From Candidatus Obscuribacteraceae bacterium (GTDB lineage: Bacteria; Cyanobacteriota; Vampirovibrionia; Obscuribacterales; Obscuribacteraceae), in NCBI GenBank assembly GCA_044226015.1, contig JBGAHS010000007.1, positions 288,001 through 352,000 on the forward strand: DNA of 64,000 nt, given 5' to 3'. Position 1 is the stretch's first letter, and each line of letters starts with the position of its first letter. The notes beneath the pieces are model-generated. The model searched no databases. It had not been told where the DNA came from and was given only the letters and a program-made list of their open reading frames with translations. A program made the position numbers and the translations under genes. Positions 49,331 to 53,936 of the stretch are shown here, piece after piece.

Positions 49331-49593
49331 CGGCAGAGTTGTTGTTGCTTTTTTTTGTGTGGACCGTTAATCTCCTGTTTTGTCTTCTCTTCTTTATCCT
49401 CTCGTTTTGTCCTCGCGTTTTATCCTCTCGTTTCATTTTTCATTTTTTGTTTGGGATTGCTTCCGCGTTGGTAGGTCCTGTCTTCCTCTTCGCTGATTCT
49501 GGAATTCCACCTGGCTTCTGGAAAGCTACACTTTGCGGCCGATAAGACGCTCTGCTCATGATCTCTTGTGGTCATGGCTGGGGATTCTCTTTG

Positions 49594-49689
49594 TGTCGTA
49601 TGCTTTACGATATAGTTGCACTTGAATTTAGGGGTGCTTGACAGTGCTTTGTTGATAGGTTTATGATAGTAAACGTAAAAACTACGATA
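49594..49689 (+). promoter_or_regulatory. sigma70-type promoter flanked by two GT-N7-AC operator-like sites
   Basis: TTGACA 49638-49643, TATGAT 49662-49667 (18-bp spacer); sites TGTCGTATGCTTTACGATA 49594-49612 and AAACGTAAAAACTACGATA 49671-49689. Confidence 0.7.
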
Positions 49690-49704
49690 AAGACGGGGGC
49701 GGAT

Positions 49705-50778
49705 ATGCGTAAATTAGATGGACTCTCCGCAGATAAGATTCTTGCTGTCGAAGAACCTGAATTGCTTTTCTCGAGGTTTTCAGATGAAGCCAAGCAAGAA
49801 TACAGGGCGCTAGCTTTAATTTGGCATCCAGATAACTATCGAGAGCCCATAGGCGCTTCTGTTTTTTCTCACATCAACTCACTGTACCGAAGCGGGCTTG
49901 CAAAAATGCAGGACGGCACATGGACAGAGCCTGCTGAAAAAATCGAAGAGCAAGTAGATGGTCGCAAGAAGTTCGTTCTGGAAAACAATCTGGTCAAATA
50001 CTTTGACTACATCAAAGCTCGAAAATTTGAACTAGGAAAAATGTATGTAGGCGAGCACTCAGTTGCGTTCGAGCTGAAACTTGAATATACAGATCTTTTT
50101 CACAATGCTCGAAGAATAATCGGAAAATTAGGCTACAAGGACGAAGTGATGGCGGTTGAGATGGCTAAATATCTCCCTCAAGTTGTGGATGCCTTTCGGT
50201 GCAAGAATTCGAATGTTCTGGTTTTTCGAAAAACCCCCGACCAGGTTTTGCTTTCAGATGTATTGGAGACTTTTGAAAAAGGTGTAGAGCCAATCGAGCA
50301 CGTGGGATGGATTTTGAATGTTCTGTATAACATTGCTTGCTATCTTGATTGGAGCAAGGTCTCGCACAACTCGATTTCTGCAGAAACGTTTTTCATTTCT
50401 CCTTTGCGGCACAGCGGAATGCTGCTAGGAGGCTGGTGGTACTCAACAGAGCGAGATGCCGCACTAATCGCCTTGCCTGCCAGCACTATAAATGCACTTT
50501 CGCCAGATGTAGTAGATCAAAAATCTGCGTTAGCTGAAATAGATCTTGAATGTGTAAAAGCTGTGGGACGAGAGGTGTTGGGTGACGGCGCTGGTGCTAG
50601 TTTGAGATTTGACAAACGAATACCACAACGTCTGGCAGATGCGCTGCTTATGCCGACTCGAGGAAACGCACTGCAGGACTATCGTGAGTGGAAGCATGAA
50701 GTTTTAGAAGATTGTTTTGGGCGACCTAAGTTCATTCCTATGAACATTAGTAGCAAAAAATTGTATAAGGAGATATAA
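49705..50778 (+). CDS. J-domain protein with a C-terminal degenerate kinase-like fold
   Basis: EYRALALIWHPD (HPD motif); HVGWILNVLYNIACYLDWSKVSHNSISAETFFI resembles a kinase alphaE/catalytic-loop segment lacking the Asp. Confidence 0.75.
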   Translation: MRKLDGLSADKILAVEEPELLFSRFSDEAKQEYRALALIWHPDNYREPIGASVFSHINSLYRSGLAKMQDGTWTEPAEKIEEQVDGRKKFVLENNLVKYFDYIKARKFELGKMYVGEHSVAFELKLEYTDLFHNARRIIGKLGYKDEVMAVEMAKYLPQVVDAFRCKNSNVLVFRKTPDQVLLSDVLETFEKGVEPIEHVGWILNVLYNIACYLDWSKVSHNSISAETFFISPLRHSGMLLGGWWYSTERDAALIALPASTINALSPDVVDQKSALAEIDLECVKAVGREVLGDGAGASLRFDKRIPQRLADALLMPTRGNALQDYREWKHEVLEDCFGRPKFIPMNISSKKLYKEI

Positions 50779-50780
50779 CC

Positions 50781-51698
50781 ATGGGTGGTGCTAGATGGAA
50801 TCCCGATGATTGGGATAGTTACGTATCGAAAACAGCATCTGTATCGACCGCAAGCTTGTTTGGGCGGTCCATGCATAAGGACCTCGATCCTCGGAAAATA
50901 AAACTGAGAGAGTCGTGCGACTCTGATGAAAATCCTAATTCAACTCCGATTATCATTGCAGTTGATGACACAGGCTCAATGGGTTTTCTTGCAGAGACTC
51001 TAATTCGAAAGGGTTTAGGTGTTCTGATAGAAGAAATCTACCTGCGCAAACCAGTAAGCGATCCTCACATCATGTGTATGGCTGTGGGTGATGCATACTG
51101 TGATCAGGCGCCATTGCAAGTGACTCAGTTTGAAGTAGATATGCGCCTGGTAGAGCAACTCTCTAATTTCTTCATTGAAGGAGGGGGTGGTGGCAATAGC
51201 TTTGAGAGCTATAACTTGCCCTGGTACTTTGCAGCTACGCGAACCAAATGTGATGCAATGTTGAAGCGTAATAGGAAGGGGTATTTGTTTACCGTTGGGG
51301 ACGAACCACCGCCGCCTAAGTTGCTGGCTGCGCATGTCGAAAAGTTCTTGGGCACGAAGTTAGAGCGTGATATGGACTCGGCTGAATTATTTAGAATGGC
51401 TTCCCGTCACTGGGAGATATTTCACATAATTATTGAAGAAGGCGATTTCTATCGCAGTAATCCTAGAAAGGTTCTTGCCGATTGGCGGAAGCTCGTAGGT
51501 CAAAGAGCTATCTGTCTTGCAGATCACAAAGAGCTTGCTGAGCTGATTGTCTCGACAATACAGGTAAATGAAGGAAGTTCAATTGAGGAGGTTGCTGCAT
51601 CGTGGTCGGGAAGTACCGCCCTGGCTGTATGCGATTCCTTGAAAAGCTTGCAACCGGTGGGTGCAAACAGCAAGTCAAAAGGTGTGACCAGGTTTTAG
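50781..51698 (+). CDS. vWA-like (MIDAS) domain protein
   Basis: PIIIAVDDTGSMG, AVGD, EGGGGGNSFESY, FTVGDE; RBS AAGGAG inside the previous gene's end. Confidence 0.8.
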   Translation: MGGARWNPDDWDSYVSKTASVSTASLFGRSMHKDLDPRKIKLRESCDSDENPNSTPIIIAVDDTGSMGFLAETLIRKGLGVLIEEIYLRKPVSDPHIMCMAVGDAYCDQAPLQVTQFEVDMRLVEQLSNFFIEGGGGGNSFESYNLPWYFAATRTKCDAMLKRNRKGYLFTVGDEPPPPKLLAAHVEKFLGTKLERDMDSAELFRMASRHWEIFHIIIEEGDFYRSNPRKVLADWRKLVGQRAICLADHKELAELIVSTIQVNEGSSIEEVAASWSGSTALAVCDSLKSLQPVGANSKSKGVTRF

Positions 51699-51708
51699 GC
51701 GCGGGAAG

Positions 51709-51736
51709 AAGCTGGGCTCATCATTGAGCCCAGCTT
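51709..51736 (+). other. perfect 12-bp intergenic hairpin inside the operon
   Basis: AAGCTGGGCTCA-TCAT-TGAGCCCAGCTT; only a short T run follows. Confidence 0.65.
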
Positions 51737-51762
51737 TCGACTTTCACTCTGAGGAGAAAATC

Positions 51763-52947
51763 ATGAATACTGCAAAAGTCGTGATTGGGGCGAATTTTGG
51801 TGATGAAGGGAAAGGACTGATGACCGACTACTTCGCAAGTAAAAATGCGAAGAATTCTATTGTGGTGCGCTTTAACGGAGGCTGCCAGGCTGGGCACACC
51901 GTTCAAACACCAGAGGGCAAACGTCATGTCTTTAGCCACTTTTCCTCTGCTACATTGGTGAATTGTCCAACATTCTTGTCTCGTTTCTTCATTGTCAACC
52001 CGATGTTCTTTGTCAAAGAGCTCGCATCTCTCAGGCTGCTGGGAGTTGACCCTACTGTGTTTGTTGACCCGCGTGCTATCGTGAGCACACCTTTCGACGT
52101 TTTTTTGAATCAGTTGCTTGAGACTAAGAGAGGCACTAAGCGGCATGGAAGTTGTGGACTAGGCATAAACGAAACTGTCAGTCGCTGCTACCGTGAAATT
52201 TCTTTCAAGACGACTGTAGCTGAGCTCTTTGATCTTGAAAGCTTTAAGCGTAAGCTTCGACACATTCAAGCAAACTGGCTTCCCTTGCGGTTAAAAGAAC
52301 TTGGTATCGCCGAGCAAGATAGTATGGTGCTTTCGTTTTTGAGCATGAGCGAACAAATTATTGATCGCTTTTTGTCGGATGTATCTGAATTTCTGCTTGA
52401 AACTGTTTGTTCGGAAAAGATTCCAGGGAAAAGAGAGATCATCTTTGAGGGTGCTCAGGGGTTGCTTCTTGATGAATTCAGAATTGATAACTTTCCGCAT
52501 TTAACAAGGTCACGGACAGGGCTAAGCAATGTAATTGTGCTTGCCCGGGAAATGCAAGTTGAGCATCTCGAAGTGACTTATGTAAGCCGTACTTATTTGA
52601 CTCGGCACGGAGCCGGACCATTAAAGAACGAGGCACAATGGTCTTTGCGGGATGACACCAATGTTCCAAATCAGTTTCAGGGCAGTCTGCGATTTGCAGA
52701 TCTTGATCTTGATCAACTTCGGTATGCCGTCAGTCTCGACTTGAATGCAGCACGCTATCAATTTCCGAATATAACAGCGCATATGGCATTGACTTGTGCC
52801 GATCAGCTTGCATTGCCCGAGTCGACAAGCCTCCCGTTGCCTTTGAAGTATGTGGCTTTCGGACCAACACGTGTCGACGTAAGAATGATAGAAAAAGAAT
52901 TTGACAGTCCCCGCGAAAGAGCTTTAGCATCAACTGCTGTCGTTTGA
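51763..52947 (+). CDS. adenylosuccinate synthetase-like paralogue (divergent PurA family)
   Basis: GANFGDEGKG, RFNGGCQAGHT, FEGAQGLLLD, TRHGAGP; lacks the GATTGRxR loop; RBS GAGGAG. Confidence 0.9.
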   Translation: MNTAKVVIGANFGDEGKGLMTDYFASKNAKNSIVVRFNGGCQAGHTVQTPEGKRHVFSHFSSATLVNCPTFLSRFFIVNPMFFVKELASLRLLGVDPTVFVDPRAIVSTPFDVFLNQLLETKRGTKRHGSCGLGINETVSRCYREISFKTTVAELFDLESFKRKLRHIQANWLPLRLKELGIAEQDSMVLSFLSMSEQIIDRFLSDVSEFLLETVCSEKIPGKREIIFEGAQGLLLDEFRIDNFPHLTRSRTGLSNVIVLAREMQVEHLEVTYVSRTYLTRHGAGPLKNEAQWSLRDDTNVPNQFQGSLRFADLDLDQLRYAVSLDLNAARYQFPNITAHMALTCADQLALPESTSLPLPLKYVAFGPTRVDVRMIEKEFDSPRERALASTAVV

Positions 52948-53936
52948 GATATTTGGGGGCATGCTTGAAAACTCGTTTGTTGGTCGCAGCATCAGCTGCA
53001 CTCACGTTGATGACCAGTCTGTCTCCGAGTTCTTTTTCATCTGAGCGCATCAAACTTTTAGGCACGAGCGGTCATAGCGAGTATGCTCTTTCCAACCTCA
53101 AGAATTCCGCATCTAATTCTAAAGGTGAACTATCGCCGCTTGGTCTACAGTTCGCGACTAAGTTGGGACTACTTCCAAAGATTCAACGTCTGCAAGCCTT
53201 GCGTTCTCAACCTAACCTGGATGCATCAGGAAACGTCGAAATGCTTATGGTCAAGCAAGATTTGCTCGAATCAATTGTCATAGCAGCGGAAGAATTACGT
53301 ACTGTTGTTGCTCGAGTAAGTAGTGAGATTGCTGATACGTCTGAAGTTCATGCGCACTTATCTGAGAGAAGAGACAGAGCCGTCCGAATCAATACTTATG
53401 CTAACCTTGTCAGCGGTGGCATTACTGGTATGGTCGGAGGTGGGCTCAAGTTGGGTGATGTTAATCACATAAGTCCTGATTTGATTGATACCACCGAAGG
53501 TGTCATCCAGACAGCCTTAGCTACGTGGGCGCTTGCTCAGCAAAGAGGAGAAGAGCGCTACATGCGCAAAACCCCTAGCTTATTAGCTCATTTGATGAAC
53601 AGTAGCTCCGAGTTGTCGTCTGACTTTCCCACTAGTGTCTGGGCGTACCTCAATCTTCCTGCAAGAAATAACAATGACACCATCGTCAAAAGTTTAGTTG
53701 ATCGATGGTTTACATTGAATCTCTGTCTGAAACACTCAGGTCATCGTGAATCAAGAGCTTCCAGGCAGTTGCGCATTTCCAATGATGAGAAGAAGAATTC
53801 TAAGGTGACGATAGACGTGCTTGAAGACAGAATGGCAATGCTTTCCGACCTTCGAGCCTGCATTGAGCAGATGGACTTTCTCATTTTAGAATTGATGCAA
53901 TCTGTTAGAGGCAATCGCACCGTGCCGACTAACTAG
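52944..53936 (+). CDS. exported hypothetical helical protein
   Basis: Signal-like N-terminus; internal Gly-rich hydrophobic hairpin; start uncertain. Confidence 0.7.
   Translation: MRYLGACLKTRLLVAASAALTLMTSLSPSSFSSERIKLLGTSGHSEYALSNLKNSASNSKGELSPLGLQFATKLGLLPKIQRLQALRSQPNLDASGNVEMLMVKQDLLESIVIAAEELRTVVARVSSEIADTSEVHAHLSERRDRAVRINTYANLVSGGITGMVGGGLKLGDVNHISPDLIDTTEGVIQTALATWALAQQRGEERYMRKTPSLLAHLMNSSSELSSDFPTSVWAYLNLPARNNNDTIVKSLVDRWFTLNLCLKHSGHRESRASRQLRISNDEKKNSKVTIDVLEDRMAMLSDLRACIEQMDFLILELMQSVRGNRTVPTN

Follow-up and report, generated by a model that had tools for sequence, protein, structure and literature searches.

What would a PurA-like ligase do in an operon with a J-domain protein and a vWA protein? 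The question is raised by three genes in the window, a 64,000-nt stretch of DNA from a Candidatus Obscuribacteraceae bacterium. An initial annotation described three co-oriented genes, the first two lying 2 bp apart, which were confirmed as ORFs (Table 1), and interpreted them as a stress- or phage-responsive module in which the J-domain and vWA proteins sense or scaffold while the ligase makes or consumes a modified purine nucleotide. The start of gene 1 was placed at 49705 rather than 49663, because the ATG at 49663 sits within the -10 hexamer and homologues are approximately 357 aa long. In line with the absence of nearby purine biosynthesis genes stated in that annotation, inspection of the ORFs at 42-60 kb identified none, and five flanking ORFs were run against Pfam. 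An ORF at 52944-53936, which overlaps the ligase gene by 4 bp, was rejected as a fourth member, since the orthologues of both this ORF and the GGDEF gene upstream are found on contigs other than that of the triad (in same-genus carriers where found). RNA data from one run comprised two 151-nt contigs within gene 3.

Table 1. Features of the three-gene locus, in window positions.
Feature	Position	Strand	Remark
Sigma-70-type promoter-like site, TTGACA-18-TATGAT	49638..49667	+	
21-bp GT-N7-AC palindrome, just behind the -10 box	49670..49690	.	Predicted NrtR operator
Gene 1, J-domain (HPD)/pseudokinase, 357 aa	49705..50778	+	Replaceable third member
Gene 2, MIDAS vWA protein, integrin betaI-like, 305 aa, N-terminal Met-Gly arm	50781..51698	+	Predicted acceptor
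Gly2 codon of vWA	50784..50786	+	Predicted free alpha-amine once Met is removed
Gene 3, PurA-like GTP-dependent C-N ligase, 394 aa, rebuilt amino-acid loop	51763..52947	+	

The proposed fusion of an HPD J-domain to a kinase-like fold in gene 1 was borne out by motif conservation and by an AlphaFold model. The HPD motif is retained in nearly all of 83 homologues (H in 81, P in 82, D in 83), and the DnaJ Pfam match lies under its cut-off (19.8 vs 27.8 bits). With this motif between helices, the product can be classed from its sequence as a J-domain co-chaperone, with stimulation of DnaK predicted. The model (pLDDT 95) fits the protein-kinase fold (Z 19.4, rmsd 3.1, 222 residues aligned), with DnaJ-PKA chimeras as the top Foldseek matches. 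When kinase positions were assigned by motif, under the usual kinase numbering, the catalytic-Asp position carried Asp in just 14/83 homologues, DFG had become GGW-W with Gly at the DFG-Asp position in 81/83, and the family alignment held no conserved beta3 Lys. The gene 1 product appears, then, to have a kinase fold and not to be an active Hanks-type protein kinase. Gene 2 has no Pfam match and hits phrog_2971 (E 1e-47); its model (pLDDT 95) fits the vWA/integrin betaI fold (Z 15.4, rmsd 2.9, 196 aligned), and the DxTGS MIDAS is conserved (D62, S66 and E142 in 131/131; D174 in 128/131), in agreement with its earlier description as a MIDAS vWA protein.

The promoter-like site matches 11/12 positions, is by count not above chance (3 found, 4.3 expected) and has a conserved position in 4/9 relatives' upstream regions, with the same layout in L007, L016, L025 and L027. 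Scored with a matrix derived solely from four relatives, the adjoining palindrome ranks first in the genome (22.1 bits), and three shuffled genomes yielded one equal or better site; the palindrome is missing from 5/9 relatives' upstream regions as extracted. The published NrtR operator consensus is a 21-bp GT-N7-AC (PMC2330246). A like box precedes nrtR in this genome and in 2/5 relatives, and another precedes a Dsr1 gene in this genome, whose single nrtR lies approximately 4.5 kb from nadC-nadA. Two other high-scoring palindromes (C8:198323 and C10:260316) were set aside, as they adjoin no NAD-related gene and score within the shuffle range. The box at the operon's promoter, the presence of an nrtR gene and the same box at nrtR are features of an NrtR regulon; they support the Nudix-regulator link that the annotation had mentioned, and point to NrtR/ADP-ribose control of the operon via a predicted operator, with binding likewise predicted.

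The annotation's mention of similar triads in other bacteria and phages also held, as a neighbourhood search found that the three genes co-occur widely. The module is scattered among bacteria, is carried by many large phages and occurs in 200 Mycobacterium phage records; its frequency in large phages exceeds what would be expected were it simply a host defence system. The PurA-like gene was found within all 74 vWA loci having at least 5 kb on each side (50/50 viral, 19/19 metagenome and 5/5 genome loci, not de-duplicated). Conversely, vWA is present in 75/78 viral loci anchored on the PurA-like gene; one of the remaining three has a vWA gene approximately 6 kb away, and two are fragments 7% and 16% complete. 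The vWA and PurA-like proteins are near-obligate partners. The first gene, by comparison, is dispensable or replaceable, since among 169 loci 104 encode only the pseudokinase, 30 only an unrelated Met-rich protein, none both and 35 neither. Inter-protein mutual information over 216 pairs (Neff 166) reached a top z of 6.2 versus 5.1-5.3 in five re-paired controls, and its top pairs fall off the vWA N-terminal arm.

Some loci have NAD-salvage neighbours (NAMPT in 14/182, NADAR in 10/182), and RNA-repair and ADP-ribose genes recur near the module in phages. None of 17 neighbour types run against Pfam was datZ, mazZ, dpoZ or dutZ. The three genes had no meaningful match in PADLOC 2.0 (library dated 2023), a single-protein viral scan gave no match, the ESM Atlas returned just 'hypothetical protein' clusters and our literature searches yielded no description of the triad.

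Gene 3, annotated as an adenylosuccinate-synthetase-like ligase, indeed matches PF00709 (E 3e-43), and only this family, with no QueC PP-loop match. It scores far under the PurA equivalog cut-offs (115.7 vs 402; 110.9 vs 395.55) and is approximately 30% identical to the genome's own canonical purA; such a separate purA, whose existence the annotation had left to be checked, is also present in 5/5 other genomes tested. The family keeps the GDEGKG P-loop and the GTP determinants. Among 123 homologues, D14, K17 and H45 are invariant, Q232 and T248 are found in 122 and D347 in 116, equivalent to E. coli D13, K16, H41, Q224, T239 and D333. V273, T300, T301, T129, N38 and D333 are taken here in their usual PurA roles. 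Around the amino-acid site, the aspartate-binding loop GATTGRxR has become TNxxNxxQGxLR, V273 an invariant His, the R303 position is variable and R310 corresponds to R305 or R306 (one-residue gap). In PurA, R303 contacts both aspartate and the IMP 2'-OH (PMC8342488). The residues for the IMP phosphate are altered as well (T129 to Cys/Val in 121/123, N38 to Gln, no clear R143), which makes the nucleotide uncertain. Judged by these residues, the product seems to keep the GTP/IMP catalytic core with a rebuilt aspartate loop. The suggested analogy with PurZ fails: a 2026 survey gives Ser at Asp13 in 147/147 phage PurZ sequences (PMC12884076), whereas the PurA-like family has Asp in 123/123 and gene 3 scores 42 on NF038379 against a cut-off of 300. 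By the same two measures, the phrog_1211 label '2-aminooxy adenylosuccinate synthetase' is misleading.

The N-terminus of the vWA protein suggests what may replace aspartate. It starts exactly Met-Gly in 264/274 non-redundant homologues and in 82/82 further complete sequences; Gly2 is encoded by all four Gly codons, and residue 3 of the 264 is any of 17 amino acids and never Lys. As controls, residue 2 is Gly in 3/120 PurA-like and 1/118 pseudokinase homologues. The ten sequences that do not start Met-Gly include two whose start was miscalled (P0472, which carries Met-Gly internally, and P0491, a variant of the Met-Gly protein P0509), seven with Lys at the position-3 equivalent and one with Lys two places earlier. 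When the N-terminus was left out of tree building, the eight genuine exceptions fell on seven separate branches and the strict Lys3 type on six, implying at least six independent origins. The Lys3 side-chain amine lies five bonds from CA3 and the Gly2 amine four, making Lys3 a geometric mimic. A primary amine is thus conserved at the vWA start, by Gly2 in most homologues and Lys3 in seven of the eight genuine exceptions, and is very probably functional. This Met-Gly/Lys3 pattern is new here.

The Lys3 case comprises seven sequences, six of which are single predicted proteins without DNA context and only one of which, L096 (repeated in L365), lies beside a ligase gene; no further Lys3 vWA came from two additional viral scans, from the 82 new complete sequences or from searches with the Lys3 alignment, P0464 or L096 as query. 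Start choice in our loci favoured starts followed by Gly; the chosen start was the first possible one in 111/162 and 67/82 cases, and database-called starts are Met-Gly in 132/150 and 115/120. Two artefacts were considered and rejected: Lys3 as a translated ribosome-binding site, as it lies downstream of the usual start position, and a one-base start-codon error in L103, whose codon is AAA.

Taken together, these observations suggest that the vWA protein is the ligase's acceptor substrate and more than a sensor or scaffold, so that a nucleotide-protein conjugate is a more likely product than a free modified purine. The stress- or phage-module interpretation stands in its co-occurrence and Nudix link and falls in its PurZ analogy. 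On balance, we favour a mechanism in which the ligase uses GTP to join an IMP-type nucleotide to the vWA Gly2 amine, in an operon predicted to be freed from NrtR repression as NAD breakdown raises ADP-ribose. Cleavage of Met1 would expose Gly2; O6 of a hypoxanthine nucleotide would be phosphorylated with GTP, PurA-style; and the vWA amine, replacing aspartate, would attack C6 to leave an N6-linked adenylate on vWA. This tag may alter binding by the MIDAS domain or may take a deaminated purine nucleotide from the pool, while the J-pseudokinase would be a non-catalytic adaptor recruiting DnaK to the complex. Within this mechanism, use of the vWA amine by the PurA-like enzyme is probable, an IMP/dIMP-like nucleotide is reasonably likely, and a role on either side of a phage-host conflict that involves NAD depletion is slightly favoured. 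More tentatively, the whole may be a new PTM, in which an ADP-ribose-induced PurA-fold enzyme uses GTP to place an N6-linked adenylate on the N-terminus of a MIDAS-domain protein, and by which bacteria and large phages sense or covalently remove deaminated purine nucleotides in NAD-depleting immunity.

The amine might instead be a non-covalent anchor (a salt bridge or metal ligand) that folds vWA or docks and activates the ligase, with the latter joining IMP to some small amine, though not aspartate, to give a free modified purine. Lys3 could equally replace a charged amine, the conserved acids E44, D47, E118 and D120 are available, the first ten vWA residues are fairly ordered in the model (pLDDT 87) and the rebuilt aspartate loop centres on invariant N300 and Q306. 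However, the strict Gly, which tolerates no side chain, fits a narrow active site that takes in an unbranched arm, small-molecule synthetases do not usually have a stoichiometric partner, here seen in 74/74 loci, and the recurrent neighbours include no conserved lyase or amine-supplying gene, leaving this alternative rather unlikely.

Less probable still is that something else modifies the vWA amine or reacts with it, such as a host enzyme or a ligase-activated target protein or nucleic acid (a cross-link) in place of a free mononucleotide. The altered 5'-phosphate pocket (T129, N38, R143) could admit a longer substrate, for instance ADP-ribose-like or nucleic-acid-linked inosine, and the RNA-repair and ADP-ribose neighbours in phages would fit, but T239 and the base-reading residues are retained and the ligase is the only enzyme always present with vWA. 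A plain PurA reading of gene 3 was rejected on its lost aspartate loop, low score and the canonical purA elsewhere. Its extended form, an auxiliary adenylosuccinate synthetase that, chaperoned by vWA and J-pseudokinase, raises the supply of AMP during infection or while NAD recovers, can appeal to the retained Asp13, His41, Gln224 and GTP determinants, the NAMPT and NADAR neighbours and database labels of adenylosuccinate synthetase; it is very improbable given the loss of the aspartate loop and R303, a score of 116 against 402 and a canonical purA in 6/6 genomes tested, and it leaves the Gly2/Lys3 pattern unexplained.

N-terminal nucleotide attachment to vWA would be an undescribed protein modification and, if true, a second and independent means of conjugating a nucleotide to a protein through its N-terminal glycine, with chemistry distinct from deazaguanylation. 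It would also provide a function for a group of phage PurA homologues that belong to neither the PurA nor the PurZ family: the 2026 survey counts 481 viral PF00709 proteins, of which 147 are PurZ, and leaves the rest undiscussed in the section giving these counts (PMC12884076). Genetics are easy in the Mycobacterium phage carriers.

Among known systems, the locus resembles NrtR regulons in its predicted 21-bp GT-N7-AC operator and in the genome's single nrtR, and differs from those of PMC2330246 in its predicted targets, the triad operon and the Dsr1 gene; 'adenylosuccinate' and 'purA' are absent from the main text of that paper. The ligase shares with PurA (PF00709, TIGR00184) the fold, P-loop and equivalents of Asp13, His41, Gln224, Thr239 and Asp333, but has a shortened C-terminal region and a fixed vWA partner; like PurZ/PurZ0 (NF038379), it is a phage-borne PurA paralogue with changed specificity. 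The TerY-P triad consists of vWA, PP2C and kinase. As in TerY-P, a vWA protein and a kinase-fold partner occur in a stress/conflict operon, here with a dead kinase, no phosphatase and a PurA-like enzyme. Closest are Cap9-CdnD of type IV CBASS and QatC-QatB of qatABCD: Cap9 conjugates a nucleobase to CdnD Gly2, and the essential Gly2 of QatB lies in the active site of QatC (PMC13279940, PMC13376578). In each, a C-N ligase from nucleotide biosynthesis has been turned to a new use, with Gly2 of a co-encoded partner in place of the small amine substrate, and the enzyme-partner pair is the core with other genes accessory. By this analogy, on which the conjugation reading draws, our module likely works like QueC-family N-terminal deazaguanylation. 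The tails of QatB and CdnD are long and loose, whereas the vWA arm is modelled as fairly ordered. Unlike the QueC-family systems, with which it shares no protein family, our module would use a PurA fold, GTP and a phosphoryl intermediate rather than PP-loop QueC, ATP and AMPylation, and it has a predicted vWA acceptor, a natural Gly2-to-Lys3 swap, frequent carriage by phages and predicted NrtR control.

The three co-oriented genes proposed in the initial annotation are present at 49705-52947, and its description of each product is borne out: an HPD-bearing J-domain fused to a protein-kinase fold (gene 1), a vWA protein with an intact MIDAS (gene 2) and an adenylosuccinate-synthetase-like ligase (gene 3). 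A longer gene 1 ORF opens at 49663, its start falling within the -10 hexamer of a TTGACA-18-TATGAT site; gene 1 homologues are about 357 aa long. The GC content of the triad resembles that of the remaining window, and its nearest named homologues come from Obscuribacterales. Between a GGDEF gene and the promoter lies a long pyrimidine-rich tract (49340-49450). Downstream, the ORF at 52944-53936 (330 aa) shares 4 bp with the end of the ligase gene and begins with a signal-peptide-like segment; it has no family match and no linkage to the triad in relatives.

Features of the triad, its predicted operator and the gene 1 substitute (bare coordinates refer to the window; L061 and L003 are collected loci)
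Feature	Position	Placement	Description
Predicted NrtR operator	49670-49690	after -10 box	21-bp palindrome, GT-N7-AC core
Gene 1	49705-50778	co-oriented with genes 2 and 3	357 aa, J-domain/pseudokinase
Gene 2	50781-51698	co-oriented with genes 1 and 3	305 aa, vWA
Gene 3	51763-52947	co-oriented with genes 1 and 2	394 aa, PurA-like ligase
Met/Gly-rich substitute protein	L061:6252-6980, L003:8222-8932		alignment A8

In PurA, GTP phosphorylates O6 of IMP, and an amine then attacks C6. Gene 3 belongs to PF00709 and, across 123 homologues, retains the equivalents of E. coli D13, K16, H41, Q224, T239 and D333. In the same homologues, TNxxNxxQGxLR stands where PurA has its GATTGRxR loop, an invariant His occupies the V273 equivalent, and the T129 equivalent is Cys or Val. 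With the roles of the compared residues other than R303 and Asp13 presumed, the ligase shares with PurA the residues of nucleotide and GTP chemistry, whereas its aspartate pocket has been rebuilt; the phosphate pocket also departs from PurA. According to one study, PurA R303 contacts both aspartate and the 2'-OH of IMP (PMC8342488). A plain PurA identity was rejected, as gene 3 scores far under the PurA cut-off and its GATTGRxR loop is replaced; the separate canonical purA that the initial annotation had asked about lies on a different contig of the same genome (E 8.5e-178), and one is also present in 5/5 other carriers tested. The suggested analogy with PurZ does not hold either: the score is far below the PurZ cut-off, and the ligase keeps Asp at the Asp13 equivalent, whereas phage PurZ is reported always to have Ser there (PMC12884076). 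The label phrog_1211 implies PurZ, and the members seen here retain Asp13; phage gene annotation under this label is probably wrong.

The vWA gene was found in 9/60 relatives, in 3/400, 8/400 and 1/400 genomes sampled from three phyla (centres left out of the counts), in 21 plasmid records and in 219 phage records (200 of them Mycobacterium phages). It also turned up in 560 viral stretches and at least 542 from metagenomes, of which the best 80 in each set were examined. Among vWA loci flanked by 5 kb or more on both sides, which were not de-duplicated, a PurA-like gene is present in 50/50 viral, 19/19 metagenome and 5/5 genome loci, and the pseudokinase in 36/50, 15/19 and 4/5, respectively. 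Ligase-anchored viral loci contain the vWA in 75 of 78 cases, the other three being explained by distance or short fragments, and three of four vWA loci with no visible ligase carry one elsewhere on the record. The co-occurrence of vWA and ligase is thus widespread. In same-genus carriers, the genes flanking the triad are found on other contigs, which indicates that the cassette is mobile. One phage group (loci L042, L045, L049 and L198-L203) has a T4-like tail-sheath-stabiliser and neighbouring structural genes between vWA and ligase.

The gene 1 model (pLDDT 95) matches the kinase fold with Z 19.4, and its top Foldseek matches are DnaJ-PKA chimeras. Because the motif alignment reveals no beta3 lysine, Asp at the catalytic position in only 14/83 sequences, and GGW-W in place of DFG, we classify it as a pseudokinase. 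A mycobacteriophage gene 1 (L005:7892-8962) appears to keep the beta3 Lys, the catalytic-loop Asn and the DFG Asp, not the catalytic Asp, and may still bind ATP. Among 169 loci, 104 carry the pseudokinase versus 30 with an unrelated, unnamed protein rich in Met and Gly (about 230 aa), which sits upstream of the vWA in the J-pseudokinase's place and has no Pfam or PHROG match; none carries both, and 35 carry neither. Given this interchangeability and the steady vWA-ligase pairing, the core of the module is vWA plus ligase.

Gene 2 has no Pfam match and matches phrog_2971; its model (pLDDT 95) is a vWA fold nearest to integrin betaI domains (Z 15.4). After 14 of 448 sequences were left out as incomplete before clustering, 264 of 274 homologues (<70% identity) start exactly Met-Gly; start choice in the loci favoured Gly, and database-called starts agree. 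So do all 82 complete sequences of a further set (6/88 were incomplete or frameshifted), while Gly2 occurs in only 3/120 and 1/118 partner proteins used as a control. All four Gly codons are used, so selection acts on the residue itself; residue 3 takes 17 different amino acids, Lys in none of the Met-Gly starters. The ten exceptions comprise two start miscalls, seven proteins with Lys at the position-3 equivalent (Lys3) and one with Lys two places earlier; the eight Lys-bearing proteins fall on seven branches of a tree made without the N-terminus. In the seven Lys3 proteins, six of them single predicted proteins and only that of locus L096 having DNA context, Gly2 is substituted or a short extension abolishes the free alpha-amine. 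The Gly2/Lys3 association has a Fisher p of 4e-13, overstated owing to kinship among sequences. As the Lys3 side-chain amine would sit almost at the position of the Gly2 amine, we infer from these sequences that this spot needs an unbranched primary amine. For two sister Lys3-type proteins with short N-terminal extensions, P0464 and P0496, the listed contig has 550,165 bases in each case; they are possibly paralogues within one replicon. At L103:6945-9153, the vWA has a longer N-terminal extension with Lys at the Met1 position; of the conserved sites, 23 are non-consensus in the ligase of this locus, where the median is near 7.

The palindrome behind the -10 box also occurs in 4/9 relatives, and a matrix built from those four was used to scan the window's genome. 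The window palindrome is the top site (22.1 bits); the second (20.4 bits) lies behind a TTGACA box and ahead of a Dsr1/SIR2 gene encoding 1199 aa, and one of 15.5 bits precedes the genome's single nrtR, near nadC and nadA. Three runs on shuffled genomes gave one site of at least 22.1 bits, and 19-20-bit sites arise by chance, so the Dsr1 and nrtR sites rest on position. The same box precedes nrtR in 2/5 relatives (22.0 and 19.8 bits), and GT-N7-AC is matched weakly once more around window position 49593. The NrtR core is GT-N7-AC and ADP-ribose the releasing ligand, as stated in PMC2330246. The Nudix regulator mentioned in the initial annotation was also recovered on plasmids: an nrtR lies divergent to one cassette, and a second cassette carries a perfect box with a Nudix gene downstream. 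In the window's genome, the box directly behind the promoter of the Dsr1/SIR2 defence gene (G000:C1:562393-566026, L369; PADLOC E 2.8e-159) suggests ADP-ribose feedback control of this NADase, and some 4.5 kb separate nrtR with its own box (G000:C7:700001-708330, L370) from a nadC-nadA cluster, after which comes a nadB-like ORF. Neighbours of the triad include NAMPT (14/182 loci), NADAR (10/182 loci) and recurrent RNA-repair genes. Together with the predicted NrtR box, these NAD-salvage and RNA-repair neighbours make a role in NAD-depleting conflicts, whether defence, counter-defence or repair, likely. More speculatively, the module might remove deaminated purines, which serve RADAR and Kongming as signals or toxins.

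The triad is a real, mobile and undescribed module that is neither PurA nor PurZ. No description of it appeared in the full-text literature searched, although subscription papers and most supplements lie outside that search and may list the neighbourhood; adenylosuccinate synthetase is unmentioned in the available portions of PMC7824862 and PMC9503650. The retained chemistry, the rebuilt aspartate pocket and an inseparable, amine-conserving partner are most simply read together if the ligase keeps its nucleotide and GTP chemistry and the vWA N-terminus serves as the amine substrate. The product would be an N6-linked adenylate on that N-terminus, the nucleotide being putative as the phosphate pocket differs. 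GTP-driven conjugation of an IMP-type nucleotide to the vWA Gly2 amine, from an operon under predicted NrtR repression that ADP-ribose would relieve, is the best joint explanation and one that we hold to be somewhat probable. Precedent for such logic, with Gly2 of a co-encoded partner as the amine, comes from the QueC conjugation systems: according to two reports, Cap9 attaches deazaguanine to Gly2 of CdnD, and QatB has an essential Gly2 that sits in the active site of QatC (PMC13279940, PMC13376578). Although these systems have no protein family in common with the vWA-ligase module, by analogy it likely works as they do.
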